Assembly (NCBI GenBank): GCA_039919015.1
Contig: JBDSGK010000017.1
Coordinates: 17,380 to 81,379, forward strand
Source of the DNA: Ferruginibacter sp.
GTDB lineage: Bacteria > Bacteroidota > Bacteroidia > Chitinophagales > Chitinophagaceae
DNA length: 64,000 nt
Direction of reading: 5' to 3'
Part shown: in pieces, positions 24,952-63,848 of the stretch
How the letters are laid out: each line of letters begins with the position of its first letter
Position numbering within the stretch: the first letter of the stretch is position 1
Notes under the pieces: generated by a model
The model's database searches: none
The model's input: the letters and a program-made list of their open reading frames with translations, nothing else
Told to the model about the DNA's origin: nothing
Made by a program: the position numbers and the translations under genes

Positions 24952-27027
24952 ATGAAAAAAAACTTTTCTTCTCTTGCATTTTTGAGCATTATTTTATGTA
25001 GCCCGGTCTTATTATCTGCCCAATCAGAAAATTCGTTAACTGCCGGCACCTCAGATACTAAAAAATCAACTACTAAAAAATTCATTGATCCTGCCAATAT
25101 GGATCTTTCTGTAAATCCCGGTGATAATTTTTACCTGTATGCCAATGGCAACTGGTTAAAAAAAACACCCATACCCGGCTCTAAAACCCGTTGGGGAAGC
25201 GGTGATGTATTGGCAGAAGAAAGCTCCAAAGCCCTTAAAACTTTACTTGAAGAAGCGGCAAAATCACCCGGCAGCAATAGTTTAATGAAACGTGTTGGTG
25301 ATTATTATACCAGCGGCATGGATAGCACAGCCATTGAAAGATTAGGGTATAAACCCATTAAGCCTTACCTGGATGCTATAACGGCACTCAGCAGCAAGGC
25401 AGAAGTTTTAAAACAAATGAACTACCTGCGTTCACAGTCAATAAGTTCGCCCTTATACCGTATTGGTGTTGGGCAGGATTCAAAAGACGTAACAAAATAT
25501 ATTATCAGCATCAGCCAGGGTGGCACCACTTTACCCGACCGGGATTATTATTTAAAAGATGATGCCCGCAGCCAGAAAATAAGAACAGATTACATCCAGT
25601 ATATGGTTACATTATTCACCCTTTGCGGGGAAGACATGGTAAGATCTATGGCCAATGCTGTGACCATTATGCAATTGGAAACCTCACTGGCACAGGCACA
25701 ATTGAGCCGTGTTGACATGCGTGAGCCTGAAAAATTATATAATAAGTTTTCGGTTAACGGTTTAAGCGCTAAAACACCAAACCTTAACTGGCAAAGCATT
25801 TTAACACAGTTAGGTTATAAAACAAAACCGGACAGTTTAATTGTTACCAATCCGAGGTTCATGCTGTACATAGATTCCATGTTAAGCAAAGTTCCTTTGG
25901 ATGACTGGAAAGTTTATTTAAAGTGGGGCGTAATGAAAGATGCAGCTCCTTATCTCAGCAGTGAATTTGTAAATGCAAATTTTAAATACAATCAATCCCT
26001 TACCGGTCAAAAAGAACCAACACCCCGTTGGCAACGTATGAGTGGTTTGGTTGACCGGCAGTTGGGTGAGTTGTTGGGACAGTTATATGTAGATAAATAT
26101 TTTGACCAGGCCTCCAAAGCCAGCATGCTGGTACTGGTAAATAACCTCCAAACCACTTTTGAGAGTCGCATCAATAAATTAGACTGGATGAGTGCTGAGA
26201 CCAAAAGAAGCGGATTAATTAAACTGCATGCTTTTACCAAAAAGATCGCTTTTCCTGATACCTGGAAAAATTATGATGGGCTTGAGATTAAAAAAGATGA
26301 TTTCCTGGGAAACATTCGTCGCAGCAATCAATGGCAATACCAGGATAATATTAACAGGCTGGGTAAGCCCATTGATAAAACCGAATGGGCAATGACCCCT
26401 CCTACTGTAAATGCGTATTACAGTCCACAGAAAAATGAAATCGTTTTTCCTGCCGCCATATTGCGTTCTCCTTTCTTTGATTTTGAGGCAGATGATGCCA
26501 TTAATTATGGGGGCATTGGTGCGGTGATAGGCCATGAGATGACCCATGGTTTTGATGACCAGGGCCGCCAATATGATGCAGATGGAAACCTGCAAGACTG
26601 GTGGACCAAATCTGATGCGGATGAATTTAAAAAGCGTGCTGACGAAGTTGTTCAGCAATATAATAGTTACACCGTTTTAGATACGATACACGTTAATGGC
26701 AAACTTACACTGGGAGAAAATCTTGCCGACCTTGGCGGTTTGAGCATTGCGTACGAAGCTTTTAAAAATACCAACCAGGGCAAACGCAATGACATGATAG
26801 ATGGCTTTACACCCGATCAGCGTTTCTTCCTTAACTGGGCGCAGGTATGGCGTAATAATATTTTACCCGATGCTGCTGCACAAAGAATTTTAACCGACAA
26901 TCACTCACCGGGTATGTACCGTGCAAACGGCCCGCTTATTAATATGGATGCTTTTTACAAAGCCTTTGATGTGAAGCCCGGAGATAAAATGTACAAAGCG
27001 CCTGAACTAAGGACCAGGATCTGGTAA
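24952..27027 (+). CDS. M13 family metallopeptidase (neprilysin/PepO-like)
   Basis: VNAYY, HEMTH zinc motif, GENLADLGG and DNHSPGMYRANG; signal peptide. Confidence 0.95.
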   Translation: MKKNFSSLAFLSIILCSPVLLSAQSENSLTAGTSDTKKSTTKKFIDPANMDLSVNPGDNFYLYANGNWLKKTPIPGSKTRWGSGDVLAEESSKALKTLLEEAAKSPGSNSLMKRVGDYYTSGMDSTAIERLGYKPIKPYLDAITALSSKAEVLKQMNYLRSQSISSPLYRIGVGQDSKDVTKYIISISQGGTTLPDRDYYLKDDARSQKIRTDYIQYMVTLFTLCGEDMVRSMANAVTIMQLETSLAQAQLSRVDMREPEKLYNKFSVNGLSAKTPNLNWQSILTQLGYKTKPDSLIVTNPRFMLYIDSMLSKVPLDDWKVYLKWGVMKDAAPYLSSEFVNANFKYNQSLTGQKEPTPRWQRMSGLVDRQLGELLGQLYVDKYFDQASKASMLVLVNNLQTTFESRINKLDWMSAETKRSGLIKLHAFTKKIAFPDTWKNYDGLEIKKDDFLGNIRRSNQWQYQDNINRLGKPIDKTEWAMTPPTVNAYYSPQKNEIVFPAAILRSPFFDFEADDAINYGGIGAVIGHEMTHGFDDQGRQYDADGNLQDWWTKSDADEFKKRADEVVQQYNSYTVLDTIHVNGKLTLGENLADLGGLSIAYEAFKNTNQGKRNDMIDGFTPDQRFFLNWAQVWRNNILPDAAAQRILTDNHSPGMYRANGPLINMDAFYKAFDVKPGDKMYKAPELRTRIW

Positions 27028-27050
27028 GCTTATTTTTATTGAACTTATTG

Positions 27051-27083
27051 ACCGGGATGCTTTGAAAGGCATCCCGGTTTTTT
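27051..27083 (+). terminator. Intrinsic terminator after the M13 peptidase gene
   Basis: ACCGGGATGC-TTTGAAAG-GCATCCCGGT followed by TTTTT. Confidence 0.85.
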
Positions 27084-27168
27084 GTTATATTGTGGTGGAG
27101 GATAAGGAGGTACAGTTTTCCGTTGATGACAACCAGGAAAATGTGCCGGGTATTGCGTAGGTGCAAAT

Positions 27169-27612
27169 GTTAGACGCAAGTCAACCACCCTACATTATTA
27201 TGAAAATGTTAAGAATAATTATACCTTCATTTATACTCATTGGCTGTTATAATAAGCAAAGAAATGTTTATGATGAAAATAATTATACACTTATAAAAGT
27301 TGACACAGACAACAATATTATTTTTAGAAGGACATTTATAAATAAATATGATACATCAATGAAGCTGCAAATTAGCTATTGGGATAATGGAAATATTTTA
27401 GTGAAAGGGTTTTTGCACAGTGGTAAATTGGATGGAAAAATTGAGATGTATCAGATGGATGGGAGTTTAATGGAAATTGATTCATTTAGTAATGGAATAA
27501 AAGTTTATTCAAAAAGTTACGTTGAGAAAGACACTACTACTAAAATATTCAGGAATGGTAAATTAGAACCTTTTACCAGTTTTGACTCTTTGAACTAACA
27601 CCTGCGCCTAAC
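27169..27612 (+). mobile_element. Integron-cassette-like unit 1 (MORN-like lipoprotein)
   Basis: 5' end GTTAGACGCAAGT (27169-27181; GTTRRRY) and 3' end ACCTGCGCCTAAC (27600-27612; RYYYAAC), 11/13 complementary, tightly enclosing one AT-rich ORF. Confidence 0.5.
27200..27598 (+). CDS. Hypothetical lipoprotein with MORN-like (YwqK-type) repeats
   Basis: Lipobox ILIGC; YWDNGNILVKG..LDGKIEMYQMDGSL..F.NG repeat pattern. ATG 27200 preferred. Confidence 0.6.
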   Translation: MKMLRIIIPSFILIGCYNKQRNVYDENNYTLIKVDTDNNIIFRRTFINKYDTSMKLQISYWDNGNILVKGFLHSGKLDGKIEMYQMDGSLMEIDSFSNGIKVYSKSYVEKDTTTKIFRNGKLEPFTSFDSLN

Positions 27613-27741
27613 ATAGGTTCCTATGGATATATAGACCTTAGAGATATTGAAATAAGAGTATAAATTTCTTTTGAAAGCAAGGAGCAAACAAGATTTACAT
27701 GATCGGTTGGCGAGGACAATAACCGGTAAAAAAAACCAATA

Positions 27742-27880
27742 TCGCCTGCGGGCTACGCAAAGAGTGCCGCAGGCTGGTTTTGCAATCACAATAAAATGCC
27801 GTTCCTTTAATAAGCAGCATTGCAGGGCAGACACAGCAACAAATACCCGAGCTGCGGCAAGCCCCGGGCTTCAGCTATAA
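27742..27880 (+). repeat. Degenerate attC-like hairpin
   Basis: Left arm CGCCTGCGG..TGCCGCAG (27765-27772) pairs with CTGCGGCA (27852-27859); ends in GCTATAA (27874-27880), a degenerate core-like site. Confidence 0.45.
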
Positions 27881-27897
27881 TTGTAAAATCTTTTAGT

Positions 27898-28359
27898 ATG
27901 AGATATTGCCTCATTTTGTTTATTACACTTACTCATTATTTAAGTGTTGCGCAATCGACAAAAATAATTGTTCCTACTAAACCTTCCAGTGCACTTGAAA
28001 AAATACTAATTCAGGAAATGTATGATTTCTCAAATGCCTGGGGCCTGAGTGATACAGCAACTCTAAGTAAATTATTGGCTCCTGAGTATAGGCACAGTGA
28101 TGTCTTTGGTGAAATTCAACACAGAAATGAATGGTTAATTTTTGCTGCAAAGAAAAGAGATATAGCTAACCTGGAAATTAATGACATAGAAATTTTAATG
28201 TACTATGATAATATGGCTGTTATTACAGGTAAAATGACCTATTTATTTGGAACGGAAAAGATCAAACAAGACCTACGTTTTACACAAATCTTTGGAATTT
28301 ATAATGGGAAATGGAAAAGGGCTGCGTTCCAGGGAACTTATATTAAAAACGTAAAATGA
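27898..28359 (+). CDS. Nuclear transport factor 2 family / DUF4440 exported protein
   Basis: Signal peptide; LSKLLAPEY, NMAVITG and RFTQIFGIYNGKWK SnoaL/NTF2 pattern. ATG 27898 preferred. Confidence 0.8.
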   Translation: MRYCLILFITLTHYLSVAQSTKIIVPTKPSSALEKILIQEMYDFSNAWGLSDTATLSKLLAPEYRHSDVFGEIQHRNEWLIFAAKKRDIANLEINDIEILMYYDNMAVITGKMTYLFGTEKIKQDLRFTQIFGIYNGKWKRAAFQGTYIKNVK

Positions 28360-28439
28360 AGTTCCAATGACTATAACTAACACGAACTGTTTTATAAACA
28401 AAATTAATTTCGCTGTAAAATAGTTTTGAAATCCCCCCA

Positions 28440-28505
28440 CTGGCAAGTGTTCAGCGCAGCGGGTCACTTGTGCCGACTAATATTCCCGGATTGTATCCGG
28501 GGTTT
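28440..28505. repeat. Two small GC-rich hairpins between convergent genes
   Basis: GGCAAGTG..CACTTGTGCC and CCCGGAT-TGT-ATCCGGG. Confidence 0.4.
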
Positions 28506-28552
28506 AAAAAACGTAAGTATATTTTCGATACAAGAAGTCGTAACAATGAATA

Positions 28553-29587
28553 CTATTTAACCTTACTACAATCGATCGGTTTATCATCTTTAGTCGTGGT
28601 CCAGGCAACGGCAAGTGGAGCATAAGTTCCTCCGCCCGAATAAACCTGTCGAAGCGTTACATAGCCGACATAACATTTACCCCCGCTTTTATAGGCCATC
28701 CATATATGGGGGTTGAAATATTTATACTTGGGAATACCGATATCATCTTTAGCGATTGACCAGTACGCTCCGTTATAGGTTTCTGCAACCCATTTGATGA
28801 TCTGCCTGTCGGGCAGGTCTCTTTTCAGTATGGAAGCTATTTTGGCGCTGGTTGCACCGGGATCTGTCAGTTTACCGGGGTTTGAAAACACCGCTGGCAT
28901 TTTATCATAGCGAAATGCATTCGCCAGGGCGAGGTCGGATCCCACTTCTGCATTCTTTTTGATCCTTGCATAATCATCTTCTTTGAACTTAAAATCGAAT
29001 TCACCTTCAATTTTTGGCCATTTTTCCTCGTCCTGGTAAGAACCATAGGTGTTCTTTGTCTCCATAAAAATTTTAATACTCACATTATAATTTCCATCGG
29101 GTAATTTTTCATAGCCAATTCCGGAAGACAAAGGAAAATGTCCCAGGCCTGCAACAAAATCATCCAGCAGTGAATACACCGTTGTTGCTTTTGGCCCCTC
29201 CGGCAAAAGGTCGAAGTTGAATGCATTGCTGTTCTTGAAATCGTCACTAAGCAGGCTGTAGTATTTGCTATAATGTATCACATAGTCGTCTCCGCCAGCT
29301 TTTTTGATAGAGATACTCATCTGTAGATATTGCAGGCCCTTATTTTCATCGCTGAGCTTGAAAGCTTCTTTGATCGTTCCTGAAGTCAGCTCTAATCTTC
29401 CATAAATATATTCAGAAGAGGTAAAACTTTTTTTACTGTTGGCATTGGAATTTGTAAAGGGCTGGTTGGAAAAATACATGGTACCCTCTACTGCTGTTCC
29501 GGACAGGTTATTCTTTAACTTATCATTTTTTGCAACTCCTACGATGCTGACCAATAAGAAGCCAGTTATAAAAAGGAAATTCTTCAT
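28553..29587 (-). CDS. Hypothetical exported protein
   Basis: 344-aa ORF with Sec signal peptide; no family recognised. Confidence 0.7.
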   Translation of the reverse strand: MKNFLFITGFLLVSIVGVAKNDKLKNNLSGTAVEGTMYFSNQPFTNSNANSKKSFTSSEYIYGRLELTSGTIKEAFKLSDENKGLQYLQMSISIKKAGGDDYVIHYSKYYSLLSDDFKNSNAFNFDLLPEGPKATTVYSLLDDFVAGLGHFPLSSGIGYEKLPDGNYNVSIKIFMETKNTYGSYQDEEKWPKIEGEFDFKFKEDDYARIKKNAEVGSDLALANAFRYDKMPAVFSNPGKLTDPGATSAKIASILKRDLPDRQIIKWVAETYNGAYWSIAKDDIGIPKYKYFNPHIWMAYKSGGKCYVGYVTLRQVYSGGGTYAPLAVAWTTTKDDKPIDCSKVK

Positions 29588-29735
29588 GCCATTAAGTTTT
29601 ATTGTGAATAGTCATTTGAAGATACAGAAATTTTATTTTTTTATAATGATTCGCTGAATATTACTGAAAATAAAATGAAAGATGTTTCCGAAGGTTAGTG
29701 TCCTTGCTGTCATGGCCCACTCTTACAATACAAAG

Positions 29736-30863
29736 CTATGATTTACTGTCTTCAGCTACTTTCTCAGCAGCAGCTGCCCTATTTCTTTTCCTGGTCCAGA
29801 TCTCTCCTTTATGGCGGGTTGGAATTTCATCGCCTAACAATTTACCCCAGGGTTTCATTTCAGGTAAGCGGTCAAATATTATTTTTAATATCGCTAAAAA
29901 AGGAATGGAGAGGAACATACCGGATATACCCCACAAAGCCCCGCCCAAAAGCACGATCACAATGGAAAAGAATGCATTGATCTTTACCCTTGAGGAAACC
30001 AAAAAAGGCACCAGGAAATTATTATCTATGAACTGGATCAAACTATACGAAGCAATGATCGCTACAGGAGTTGTAAAACCATCCTTGGTCACCGCAGCGA
30101 TCAGCACGGGTAAAGCAATGGCAACAATGCCGCCAATATAGGGAAGCATATTCAGCAATGCGCCGATCACACCAAGTAAAATGGCGTACTCAACACCACA
30201 AAGCAATAGTGCAATAGAATTAAGTATGGCTACTACAAATGCTTCCAGCAGTAAACCCACCATATAACGCTGAATGGCGGTTTTCGTTTCGCCTAATATA
30301 GCAGAGACCTTATCTGAATTTTTTTCTGCAAAAATCTCATGAAGAAAATTGATCATGAGCGTTTTATAATACAGCAACAGGAAAACGTAGATGGGCACCA
30401 GCACAAAAAAGCCAATTATACCAAAAGCACTTCCAAGTGTTTTCCCCAACAATGCCTGGCTTCCTGATGTGGTATCATTGATCATCTGCTGTTGCTTTTT
30501 CAATGATAATTTAAAATTATTGGCGAGCCAGTCCTGTATGTCTTTAAAATGTTCATTGAATTTCACTTTTAATTGCGGCAGGTTATCCCCGAAATTCATC
30601 AGTTGAGACGAAATAAAATATAAGATGCCGGCAACGCACACGATAGCCAATGTTAATGCAATGGAAATGGCCAGTACTTTTTTTACTCCCTTTTGTTGTA
30701 ATTTATTTACAAGCGGGTTCAATAGAATCGCAATAATGAAAGAAAAGGCGATCGGCGCTAATATGTCGCTTAAATTAAACAGCGCATGGCTTATCAATAC
30801 AAGGCCCAGAATAATAACCGTACTCTTGAAGTAGAATGGATACTGCTTTGAAGATGTTATCAT
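29736..30863 (-). CDS. AI-2E family transporter
   Basis: PIAFSFIIAILLNP, LNMLPYIG, QFIDNNFLVP and LWGISGMFLSIP. ATG 30863 preferred. Confidence 0.9.
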   Translation of the reverse strand: MITSSKQYPFYFKSTVIILGLVLISHALFNLSDILAPIAFSFIIAILLNPLVNKLQQKGVKKVLAISIALTLAIVCVAGILYFISSQLMNFGDNLPQLKVKFNEHFKDIQDWLANNFKLSLKKQQQMINDTTSGSQALLGKTLGSAFGIIGFFVLVPIYVFLLLYYKTLMINFLHEIFAEKNSDKVSAILGETKTAIQRYMVGLLLEAFVVAILNSIALLLCGVEYAILLGVIGALLNMLPYIGGIVAIALPVLIAAVTKDGFTTPVAIIASYSLIQFIDNNFLVPFLVSSRVKINAFFSIVIVLLGGALWGISGMFLSIPFLAILKIIFDRLPEMKPWGKLLGDEIPTRHKGEIWTRKRNRAAAAEKVAEDSKS

Positions 30864-30890
30864 ATCATATTTATATTTAACCAACCATTA

Positions 30891-30923
30891 AAAAAGCCTG
30901 TACAAGATATGCACAGGCTTTCA
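30891..30923 (-). terminator. Intrinsic terminator on the minus strand
   Basis: Minus strand reads GAAAGCCTGTG..TACAGGCTTTTTT. Confidence 0.65.
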
Positions 30924-30945
30924 CATTGCTTTGAAATAGGCCGTT

Positions 30946-42421: not shown

Positions 42422-43276
42422 GTTATATGCCATTGTAAAAGCACTCTTCAATTTTGAAAATTATTTCAATATCTGATACTCACGGCAAACATAAAGACTT
42501 GATACTTCCTCCGGGAGATACTATAATTCATGCAGGTGATATTAGCATGAAAGGCGAATTATCTGAAATCCTCAATTTCTTTGAATGGTTTACCAGTCTA
42601 AATTATAAATTCAAAATCCTAATCGCTGGCAATCATGACTTCTATTTTGAACGAGAATCAGATCAAACTATCAAAGGTATTATTCCAAATGGCATCATAT
42701 ATCTAAATGATAATGGAATCACGCTTGAACACGTCAAATTTTGGGGTTCACCTATTACTCCATGGTTTTTCAATTGGGCTTTTAATAGACATAGGGGAGA
42801 ACCAATACAAAGACATTGGGACTTAATTCCAAACGATACAGATGTTCTAATTACACATGGTCCAATTTTTCGAACGCTTGATACTACAAAAGATGGTCAA
42901 CATGTTGGTTGCAAAGACCTCTTTAACAAAGTCCATGAAATTAAACCGCAAGCTCATATTTGTGGGCACATTCACGAAGCTTATGGCATGGTAGAGATAT
43001 CCGGAACTAAATTCATCAATGCGAGTGTCGTAAATGAGAAATATAACTTAGTTAACACTCCTATCGTTTTCGAAATCAATTAGTCAGGTCAAACAACGGA
43101 TATAACAGTTAATTGGCGCAATAGCGGTTGGACTTTAAATTTTCAGCATTAACTCATCATTGTCTTTGGTCAGCAGTTGACCGTTAATTAGAAGTTTTTT
43201 CTTAGTTTCATATTCATAAACTAAACCGGCATTGCAACCAGGCGGACGGAATAGTAATACCGCTAATTCGCCAATT
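42422..43276 (+). mobile_element. Integron-cassette-like unit (metallophosphoesterase) with attC-like hairpin
   Basis: 5' GTTATATGCCATT (42422-42434) complements 3' AACGGATATAAC (43095-43106; 1 mismatch, 1 gap). Inverted arms AATTGGCGCAATAGCGG (43111-43127) and CCGCTAATTCGCCAATT (43260-43276), 15/17. Confidence 0.5.
42454..43083 (+). CDS. Metallophosphoesterase (MPPED/239FB-like calcineurin fold)
   Basis: SDTHG, IHAGDI, IAGNHD, LITHGP and ICGHIHE; TTG start; AT-rich. Confidence 0.9.
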   Translation: MKIISISDTHGKHKDLILPPGDTIIHAGDISMKGELSEILNFFEWFTSLNYKFKILIAGNHDFYFERESDQTIKGIIPNGIIYLNDNGITLEHVKFWGSPITPWFFNWAFNRHRGEPIQRHWDLIPNDTDVLITHGPIFRTLDTTKDGQHVGCKDLFNKVHEIKPQAHICGHIHEAYGMVEISGTKFINASVVNEKYNLVNTPIVFEIN

Positions 43277-43308
43277 CATATTTCTAACTAATTTTATTAA
43301 TCAACCCA

Positions 43309-62945: not shown

Positions 62946-63848
62946 ATGATGTGGGAACCTTATAAAAAAGGATTTAAAGCCTGGCTTCAATTGGAAAAAT
63001 CATTAGCGGCTAACTCCGTTGAGGCTTACCTGCGTGATATTGATAAGCTGACAGATTATTTACAGGCCACTAAAAAAATGATCACCCCGCAGGAACTGGA
63101 ACTGAAAGATCTGGAAAAATTCATACAATGGGTTAGCGAACTGGGGATGACGGTTGCTTCTCAGTCGAGGATCATTTCGGGTTTGCGGAGTTTTTATACC
63201 TATTGTATCATTGAACAGATCGTAACCGTAAACCCAACTGCTTTACTGGAAACGCCCAAACAAAAAAGAAGCCTGCCCGATACCCTGAGCTTTGAAGAGA
63301 TCGAAAGCATTATTGCACAGGTTGACCTCAGCAAGCCCGAAGGGGGCCGTAATAAAGCCATCCTTGAAACCCTGTACAGCTGCGGATTACGGGTGAGTGA
63401 ACTGGTAAACCTGCGCATCAGTTGTTTGTTTTTGGATGTAGGCTTTATAAGGGTGATCGGCAAGGGTGATAAAGAAAGATTAGTACCTATTGGCAGTGCA
63501 GCCATTAAATACATCAACCTGTATAAAAATGAGATAAGGGTACACATGAATATAAAGCCGGGGCAGGAAGATTTTCTTTTTTTGAACCGGAGGGGAAGTA
63601 AACTCAGCCGGGTAATGATCTTTATTATGTTGAAGGAACTGGCTGCAAGCGCAGGGATCCTAAAAAACATTTCACCACATACTTTCCGGCATTCATTTGC
63701 TACACACCTGGTTGAGGGCGGTGCCGACCTGAGGGCCGTGCAGGAAATGCTGGGGCATGAAAGCATTACCACCACTGAAATTTATACACATCTTGACAGG
63801 GAATATTTGAGAAATACATTACACCAGTTTCACCCGGCGTTTAAATAA
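62946..63848 (+). CDS. xerD: Site-specific tyrosine recombinase XerD
   Basis: GLRVSEL (R), GKGDKER (K), HTFRHSFATHL (HxxR), LGH and TEIY (Y); no IntI-type insertion. Confidence 0.93.
   Translation: MMWEPYKKGFKAWLQLEKSLAANSVEAYLRDIDKLTDYLQATKKMITPQELELKDLEKFIQWVSELGMTVASQSRIISGLRSFYTYCIIEQIVTVNPTALLETPKQKRSLPDTLSFEEIESIIAQVDLSKPEGGRNKAILETLYSCGLRVSELVNLRISCLFLDVGFIRVIGKGDKERLVPIGSAAIKYINLYKNEIRVHMNIKPGQEDFLFLNRRGSKLSRVMIFIMLKELAASAGILKNISPHTFRHSFATHLVEGGADLRAVQEMLGHESITTTEIYTHLDREYLRNTLHQFHPAFK

Follow-up and report, generated by a model that had tools for sequence, protein, structure and literature searches.

A probable stranded cassette of an integron-like gene-capture system downstream of pepO in Ferruginibacter sp.

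Integrons are the textbook gene-capture machines of bacteria, in which the insertion of the integrase IntI reads the folded attC site, and classical attC sites are 57-141 nt long. The integrons with an 'inverted' integrase of Treponema, Chlorobi and Planctomycetes also carry a true IntI with the additional domain and attC sites of standard length, while the pdif modules of Acinetobacter plasmids are bounded by 28-bp double-strand sites in alternating orientation. An integron integrase has been defined by the presence of PF00589 and of intI_Cterm, the additional domain near patch III, and at least two attC sites without an integrase have been termed a CALIN (PMC4889954); the same paper mentions 'intermediate' recombinases. 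In a subgroup of integron-like recombinases the insertion was described as 'not fully conserved' by Smyshlyaev et al. (PMC8138268). The Bacteroidetes were found to be nearly without integrons, with a single complete one, in Salinibacter, reported by IntegronFinder 2.0 (PMC9024848). The present analysis concerns a stretch of 64,000 nt from a Ferruginibacter sp. genome of the family Chitinophagaceae, referred to below as the window. In this window, positions 27169-27880, downstream of the M13 peptidase gene pepO, very probably represent a single-gene cassette of an integron-like gene-capture system of the Chitinophagaceae, and positions 27870-28381 a second cassette gene without a site. Searches for the recombinase, for the recombination element and with the IntI model covered the whole assembly (3.99 Mb in 294 contigs, GC content 0.40, about 90% complete). 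No earlier description of such a system was found in the literature searched, which left subscription journals uncovered.

All features of the pepO-downstream locus described here with their coordinates are on the + strand. Cassette 1 begins with an R'-type core, GTTAGACGCAAGT (27169-27181), followed by ORF1 (27200-27598), an open reading frame (ORF) for a 132-aa AT-rich lipoprotein. Its TAA stop (27596-27598) is separated from the R''-type core ACCTGCGCCTAAC (27600-27612) by 1 nt, and not by 2 nt as stated in the first-pass annotation of this DNA. The R''-type core opens the recombination site of cassette 1 and aligns with the invariant ..AACA.. start of the element family. Complementarity between the two cores, claimed in the same annotation, could be confirmed at 11 of 13 positions; 8 of the 10 variable positions of the first core pair with 27600-27609, and the repeat search extended the pair (I2) to 24 nt at 75%. 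Taken by itself this inverted repeat says little, because similar repeats are abundant in this AT-rich stretch, and about 0.1% of randomly paired ORF flanks also reach 8/10 variable positions. It rises above chance because of homology, since the segment 27735-27881 matches two element copies on contig C250 of the same assembly (74% identity, E 1e-15) and both ends align to the family consensus.

The site itself, located with nhmmer and alignment A2 at 27600-27869 (element to 27880), is attC-like and decayed. It measures 281 nt to position 27880, against 204-219 nt in intact copies, with about 70 extra nt and a 5' arm broken up by insertions. The profile of the genome's own subfamily recovered it with an E value of 6e-42, and the family profile with 4e-8 over 27778-27867. 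What remains of the family pattern is the R'' core together with the 3' arm and the third repeat, and CTTC is read where the family has CGTT. The 'degenerate hairpin' previously placed at 27742-27880 forms only the 3' part of the longer element 27600-27880. An insertion of about 31 nt, the local hairpin GCCTGCGG...CCGCAGGC (27744-27774), is otherwise present only in the two copies beside the C250 recombinase and therefore ties the window copy to the genome's own array subfamily. GGCAGAC at 27826-27832 is the sole intact one of three GGC(N0-2)GAC repeats, and a relaxed second copy, GGCGAGGAC, is found at 27709-27717. The L'-type 3' arm of the inner stem, CCCGAGCTGCGGCAAGCCCC (27846-27865), aligns to A2 columns 255-271, whose partner is in columns 69-84; in the window this 5' partner is no longer recognisable. 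In decayed form, the window element shows all the features by which a Chitinophagaceae cassette was recognised, namely a profile match, an R'' core, a 3' arm, a junction at the GTT position (here mutated), a co-oriented gene of low GC content and a complementary 5' end. In unit 1 the cassette is clear and its site is decayed.

For the assembly-wide search, window positions 27100-28560 served as the starting query; element profiles were built from the C250 copies and were followed by a full-length family profile (nhmmer). The profile searches detected the element 24 times or more in this genome, spread over 12 loci, which bears out the earlier suggestion of a dispersed system. The copies are typically located behind a co-oriented gene with a GC content of 0.30-0.38, and several are at contig ends. 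Contig C250 (5 kb) holds the two copies matched by 27735-27881 together with the best match of the genome to the integron-integrase model. In order, it carries a tyrosine recombinase gene, followed about 125 nt further on by a junction at which ...CTATTTTTGA is joined to GTTAGCGGC, and then by a run of units. Each unit finishes with a long conserved element closing with ...GCCCCGG(A/T)CGTT, and small AT-rich lipoprotein-like ORFs lie between the elements. Three approximately 92% identical copies of a 435-nt cassette with a 68-aa hydrophobic ORF are also present on C250 (1808-2243, 4326-4760 and 4761-5052). One of them comes first behind the attI-like junction and the other two take up the final visible positions, a pattern that would fit duplication through excision and re-entry.

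The same arrangement was found in relatives. At least 295 homologues of the recombinase were identified, in records labelled Ferruginibacter, Terrimonas, Ginsengibacter, Flavisolibacter, Pinibacter and other Chitinophagaceae. In a sample of 201 species from 151 genera of the family, the gene was present in 78 species (about 39%) and 62 genera, usually once per genome. Cultured strains with the recombinase include Terrimonas sp. NS-102, Ginsengibacter hankyongi BR5-29, Pinibacter soli MAH-24 and Flavisolibacter longurius BT320 (loci L031, L040, L051 and L087). Among the homologue loci with at least 2.5 kb of downstream sequence (n=38), co-oriented elements were located downstream of the recombinase in 33, and any upstream element was seen in 2 of the 71 loci checked. 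Of all the elements counted, 160 were downstream and in the orientation of the recombinase gene, 1 was downstream in the opposite orientation and 2 were upstream. The arrays contain up to nine elements in 8 kb, with elements of 204-219 nt and cassettes of 435-2638 nt, mostly 0.7-1 kb.

The cassettes of these arrays carry a signature at their ends. At locus L048, the sequence that follows the CGTT of one element recurs in reverse complement before the ..AAC that opens the next element, the 3' element of the same cassette. When complementarity was scored over 10 variable positions, at least 8/10 was reached in 33 of 57 adjacent element pairs, as against 19 of 1118 pairs mismatched on purpose (1.7%); the value for the window pair is 8/10. 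The complementary ends first noted in the window therefore extend across the family. Such cassette-specific complementarity is the known footprint of integron cassettes, in which the core is split on integration and one half is left at each end. CGTT is invariant at the element junctions.

A combination of a chance inverted repeat with an ordinary intergenic repeat, similar to repetitive extragenic palindromic (REP) sequences or miniature inverted-repeat transposable elements (MITEs) and without any gene mobility, was considered as an explanation of the window locus. Similar local repeats are indeed common and the folds are ordinary. The genome-wide scan for paired ends, as recommended in the first-pass annotation, gave only a weak enrichment (9 versus 5 control ORFs at 8/10 or better, 5 versus 0 at 9/10 or better). 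This naive scan missed the window ORF because of the choice of start codon, and the whole-element profile was the effective probe. A repeat without mobility is nevertheless very improbable, as the complementarity is cassette-specific and family-wide, the elements are strictly co-oriented and follow only a single recombinase family, with unrelated accessory genes between them, and homologues of the window genes move together with the elements.

At 23 of 66 loci and on C250, a conserved attI-like junction reading ...AAACTTTCGCnTATTTnTGA before GTT was found about 105-150 nt past the recombinase stop. Two types could be distinguished (L017-L096, about 100-150 nt past the stop). The first reads ...GCGAAAGTTT..AAACTTTCGCnTATTTnTGA before GTT and contains an inverted repeat, while the second, at other loci, reads GTAGCGTATATTAGCGTAAATACAnAC before GTT and has GTTGTATTTGCGCTAC as its partner where the spacer begins. 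The junctions of first cassettes carry A before GTT, as on the attI-like side, and not C, as on the element side, and the bases after GTT are those of the cassette. Since the base before GTT switches between A and C and the bases behind it belong to the cassette, the exchange is placed at or within GTT.

The gene of cassette 1 can be placed in such arrays through its homologues. The product of ORF1 starts with MKMLRIIIPSFILIGC, which was read as a lipoprotein signal by inspection, and has no match in Pfam or NCBIfam. Eight homologues of the lipoprotein were found, one of which is called a YwqK-type antitoxin by its source. A 70%-identical homologue is located after an intact element (L112) or after an attI-like junction (L114), with an element behind it, and a 55%-identical homologue (L115) forms a cassette with intact elements and ends matching at 13 of 14 positions. 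The 5' end of cassette 1 is homologous to GTTGGGCGCAAGC and GTTGGCTGCAAGC, the 5' ends of the lipoprotein-homologue cassettes in L112-L115, and its ancestral crossover is likely to have occurred at or within the GTT of the core at 27169. The known homologues of both window proteins come from a large protein database; within the arrays collected from relatives, no homologue of either was present. The GC content is 0.26-0.33 for ORF1 and 0.31-0.33 for ORF2, the gene of the second unit, versus 0.42-0.45 for pepO.

The structure of the site was analysed with RNAalifold on reconstituted sites. Both strands yielded two stems, an outer one of R'' and R' and an inner one with arms about 170 nt apart; the consensus fold was -39.1 for the bottom strand versus -35.9 for the top strand, a small difference that is not decisive. 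Covariation in the inner 14-bp stem was tested on linear elements chosen solely by their outer cores, so that the test is independent of the selection. In this stem 96.8% of the cells are paired, versus 70% after shuffling and 30-48% when the partner is slid. Compensatory double changes occur in 10 of the 14 pairs, changes on both sides affect 105 cells versus 37.8 +/- 3.8, and the covariation score is 0.63 versus 0.16. The hairpin is deduced from this covariation and not from the folding energies of single sequences, because these are unremarkable. The loop carries exactly three co-oriented GGC(N0-2)GAC motifs, at approximately 33, 85 and 153 nt, in 29 of 33 intact elements (alignment A2, loci L018-L075), and none on the opposite strand, while 0.11 would be expected from shuffling. 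These repeats may be bound by an accessory domain or protein.

The strong covariation of the stem, the position of the element at the 3' end of co-oriented genes and the occurrence of the same consensus stem on both strands would also suit a structured RNA, such as a 3' untranslated region, a terminator or a small RNA, with the arrays arising by homologous recombination. An RNA would, however, be unable to explain the complementarity of the DNA before and after the gene, the invariant CGTT and the attI-like junction by the recombinase. Moreover, homologous recombination would not yield cassette-specific ends, and the element has no Rfam match: a scan of 26900-28700 at E values up to 1 returned only noise. 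The probability of this explanation is regarded as very small.

The recombinase of C250 (448-1679, locus L010) reads as two ORFs of 116 and 283 aa, which are in different frames and meet in an A-rich linker. A single open frame spans both parts in 70 of 80 relatives; full-length homologues mostly measure about 390-420 aa. Because the relatives mostly have a single frame, the split copy is taken as a pseudogene, a slippage variant or an assembly error. The break is near a run of nine A (at about 750), and a partial duplicate of 35 N-terminal residues is found upstream, at 230-334. The assembly contains no second member of the array-recombinase family; two other, Xer-like genes are present.

The catalytic part consists of PF00589 and the SAM-like N-domain typical of IntI and Xer, and none of the catalytic residues varies in the family alignment. 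All model scores are below the curated cut-offs, with 191 versus 220 bits for XerA (NF040815), 176 versus 265 for IntI (TIGR02249), 154 for XerC and 146 for XerD. Positions 180-239 of the TIGR02249 model are left unmatched by the C250 recombinase. Compared to VchIntIA (PDB 2a3v), residues 181-206 of the query (26 residues) face residues 181-246 of IntI (66 residues), which leaves about 40 missing. Both the absence of the IntI insertion and the scores below cut-off are alike in all 56 homologues scanned. For the AlphaFold model (pLDDT, the predicted local distance difference test score, 83.5), VchIntIA is the best solved structure (E 8.5e-15), followed by XerA. An extra N-terminal domain of about 90 aa (pLDDT about 90) gave no significant neighbour in the fold search, with a best E value of 0.18. 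A lambda Int-like arm-binding fold was also considered for this domain and is unsupported, as the fold search was empty.

The first-pass annotation had suggested that the cassettes could be served in trans by an IntI or another recombinase elsewhere in the genome. A recombinase elsewhere could indeed be located, on C250, but it is not an IntI; it is Xer-like and lacks the IntI insertion. This bears directly on the possibility that the locus is the remnant of a canonical integron (a CALIN), with ordinary attC sites and a true IntI elsewhere in the genome. In favour of a canonical remnant are the GTTRRRY/RYYYAAC cores, the R''-L''...L'-R' layout, which is like that of attC, and VchIntIA as the closest structure. 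However, no protein of the 90%-complete genome scores above the IntI cut-off (176 versus 265 bits), the insertion of about 40 residues is absent from every scanned homologue, and sites of 204-219 nt are longer than the attC range given above. In addition, the surveys of Bacteroidetes are near-empty (PMC9024848). A CALIN requires at least two sites within 4 kb, and at 27600-27880 one element is detectable. A canonical remnant is consequently held to be extremely unlikely.

Also extremely unlikely are Xer-dependent modules like pdif, driven by the housekeeping XerC and XerD. For these it can be said that the recombinase scores about equally on the Xer and IntI models and that two further Xer-like genes are encoded in the genome. 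Against them stand the hairpin-forming sites of about 205 nt in direct orientation, the split cassette-specific cores and the fact that the arrays are headed by a dedicated recombinase, which has an extra domain. Chromosome dimer resolution by Xer at dif does not describe the recombinase either, as it heads arrays in 33 of 38 loci and the two other Xer-like genes are available for housekeeping.

The 5' end of cassette 2 is the degenerate junction C followed by TTCAGCTATAATTG (27869-27883), where the family has CGTT, as recognised by comparison with L106 and L104. Its gene, ORF2 (27898-28359), encodes a secreted NTF2-like protein of 153 aa with a DUF4440/SnoaL match (Pfam PF14534, DUF4440), in agreement with the earlier description of a second AT-rich, NTF2-like ORF. 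Seventy NTF2-like homologues were found, with up to 92% identity and mostly on short metagenome contigs. The contigs of five of these homologues show four distinct neighbourhoods, two of which place the gene directly behind an element. In L106 the element is intact and the junction is canonical (CGTT followed by AGCAGTAATT), and in L104 the element is partial and the junction mutated (CTTTCGCTGTAAATG). Two further contexts are those of L102, a neighbourhood common to L103 and L107, and of L105. No element was found by the profile downstream of the NTF2-like gene in the contexts examined (L102-L107) or in the window, and nhmmer --max over 28382-28552 detected none after ORF2.

Because homologues follow elements in L106 and L104 and none has an element downstream, the NTF2-like unit (27870-28381) is a second cassette gene from which the recombination site has disappeared. 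The tandem cassette-like units of the first-pass annotation thus hold for the first unit, a cassette with a site, and hold less well for the second, which is without a detectable site of its own. A possible R''-type remnant of cassette 2, CAATGACTATAACTAAC, is located at 28365-28381 with no element behind it, and AATGACTATAAC is present at 28366-28377. It matches the reverse complement of the presumed ancestral 5' end GTTAGCTATAATTG at 13 of 14 positions with a 3-nt indel, the form actually present being CTTCAGCTATAATTG, and may be what is left of the R'' core. In L102-L111, where the gene is 80-92% identical, homology reaches only about 16-30 nt upstream of the start codon and ends about 10 nt beyond the stop codon. 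These boundaries are unusually tight for a gene without its own site.

The locus was compared with that of same-genus genomes with a pepO orthologue at 70-83% aa identity (G022, G006, G012, G001 and G024; L097-L101). The terminator hairpin of pepO (27051-27084, inverted repeat I21 followed by a T run) is the last feature common to the window and these relatives before a lineage-specific insert, and the homology to all five genomes stops after their pepO terminators. In G022 the terminator abuts a conserved 165-aa gene and miaB, and neither window gene lies behind pepO in the closest relative. The empty site that the earlier reader had proposed to look for was thus found, and synteny of the genes in relatives, which would have spoken against a cassette, was not seen. 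G006 and G012 each carry one different single gene between pepO and the 165-aa gene, and G001 and G024 have other neighbours. A 344-aa neighbour was also tried as a synteny anchor and rejected, as it is not conserved in relatives; its place was taken by pepO, the 165-aa gene and miaB. The window carries 3.9 kb extra at this spot (27028-30945 compared), with the two cassette genes and two GC-normal genes on the opposite strand. The latter encode an AI-2E family transporter and the 344-aa protein, which has tandem paralogues on contig C182. Judged from the sequence comparison, gene content varies between pepO and the 165-aa gene with miaB, which marks this gap as a hot spot, and the cassette genes are specific to the lineage. 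Cassette 1 may have arrived through insertion at a secondary site, or through rearrangement or as a fragment of an array. The left flank, GGGTATTGCGTAGGTGCAAAT followed by GTT (27148-27171), loosely resembles the second attI-like junction type.

A second solo cassette could be assigned to 42423-43290 on the + strand (nhmmer E 1e-10, sequence inspection and Pfam Metallophos). It consists, in order, of R' GTTATATGCC (42423), a metallophosphoesterase gene (42454-43083, GC content 0.35), R'' GGATATAAC (43101) and a decayed element (43113-43274). Its ends GTTATATGCC and GGATATAAC are complementary, and a cyclophilin gene is located just downstream. Between the element at 27600-27880 and this next window element at 43113 lie 15 kb. 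As previously stated for this DNA, no integron integrase is encoded in the window, where only a Xer-like tyrosine recombinase gene was found (62997-63794, open frame of 304 aa). It is 27% identical to the array recombinase, has no elements nearby and is probably a housekeeping XerC or XerD gene.

Taken together, these observations show how the intact system is built and suggest how it would work. A tyrosine recombinase of about 400 aa, with Xer/IntI-like core and catalytic domains, is encoded upstream of the array on the same strand. About 125 nt past its stop, a short attI-like junction, ...TATTTTTGA before GTT, is followed by the cassettes. Each of these is a promoterless-looking AT-rich gene or gene group ending in a site of about 205 nt, with an R'' core (NNNNNNYAAC), the covarying 14-bp stem, a loop that carries the three co-oriented GGC(N)GAC repeats, and the invariant CGTT. 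The recombinase would cut at or within GTT, and recombination between two sites would excise a cassette as a circle in which its 5' end is rejoined to its own site. Because of this joining in the circle, the two ends of a cassette would be complementary. Re-entry of the circle would take place at the attI-like site or, in rare cases, at a secondary GTT. The window copies are stranded and probably no longer mobile, as suggested by the change of CGTT to CTTC, the disrupted 5' arm of the stem and the loss of two of the three repeats.

Several points weigh against this interpretation. The single-strand fold of the window element is of ordinary stability (z -0.73), and so is the single-sequence fold of an intact element (z +0.73), in which the minimum free energy structure misses the long-range stem. 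That the site probably acts as a folded single strand is an analogy to attC, and circles, excision and integration are deduced from sequence patterns. The link between recombinase and array is positional. The left flank of the window locus shows neither a clear attI-like site nor an element upstream. In unit 2 no site could be detected, and the R'' match there depends on an indel. Finally, the 3.9-kb insert also includes the two GC-normal genes on the opposite strand, which are not cassettes.

On balance, we favour the view that the Chitinophagaceae possess a family-wide gene-capture platform parallel to integrons. It would be based on a Xer-like recombinase with a new N-terminal domain and without the IntI insertion, acting on folded sites of about 205 nt with three arm-type repeats, the candidate target of the N-terminal domain, and its cassettes would escape to secondary chromosomal sites. 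If this is true, either the IntI insertion is dispensable for integron-type cassette recombination or cassette capture has evolved twice. Confirmation would widen the definition of integron-like systems and show that the standard IntI profile and attC model miss a whole lineage, here a large family of soil and freshwater bacteria. It would also offer a test of hairpin-site recognition without the IntI domain and reveal a large pool of cassette genes in Bacteroidota. Two orphan AT-rich genes of the window would be explained as stranded cassettes.

Among the known systems, the sedentary chromosomal integrons, such as the Vibrio superintegron, share the most with the system described here. In both, the recombinase heads a co-oriented array of AT-rich, promoterless-looking, mostly single-gene cassettes with imperfect hairpins as R''-L''...L'-R' sites and GTT. 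Self-complementary cassette ends, an attI-like junction, sites that are alike within an array and dispersed cassettes without an integrase are also common to the present system and to sedentary integrons or CALINs. Unlike in sedentary integrons, the recombinase of the Chitinophagaceae has no IntI insertion and carries an extra N-terminal domain, it is encoded on the cassette strand, and the sites of about 205 nt contain three direct repeats; the host family is one for which integron surveys report nothing. With the integrons of the 'inverted' integrase type the system has in common a recombinase gene pointing along the array and chromosomal, sedentary arrays, but those integrons use a true IntI and attC sites of standard length, whereas the recombinase here is not an IntI. 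XerA (PDB 4a8e, 5hxy) resembles the recombinase as its best profile match (NF040815), with an end-to-end alignment and without the IntI insertion; it resolves chromosome dimers at short dif sites, however, and has neither linkage to arrays nor the extra N-terminal domain. The pdif modules are likewise small modules of accessory genes bounded by sites for a Xer-like recombinase, but they lack the hairpin site, the split core specific to each cassette and the dedicated, array-heading recombinase of the Chitinophagaceae system.

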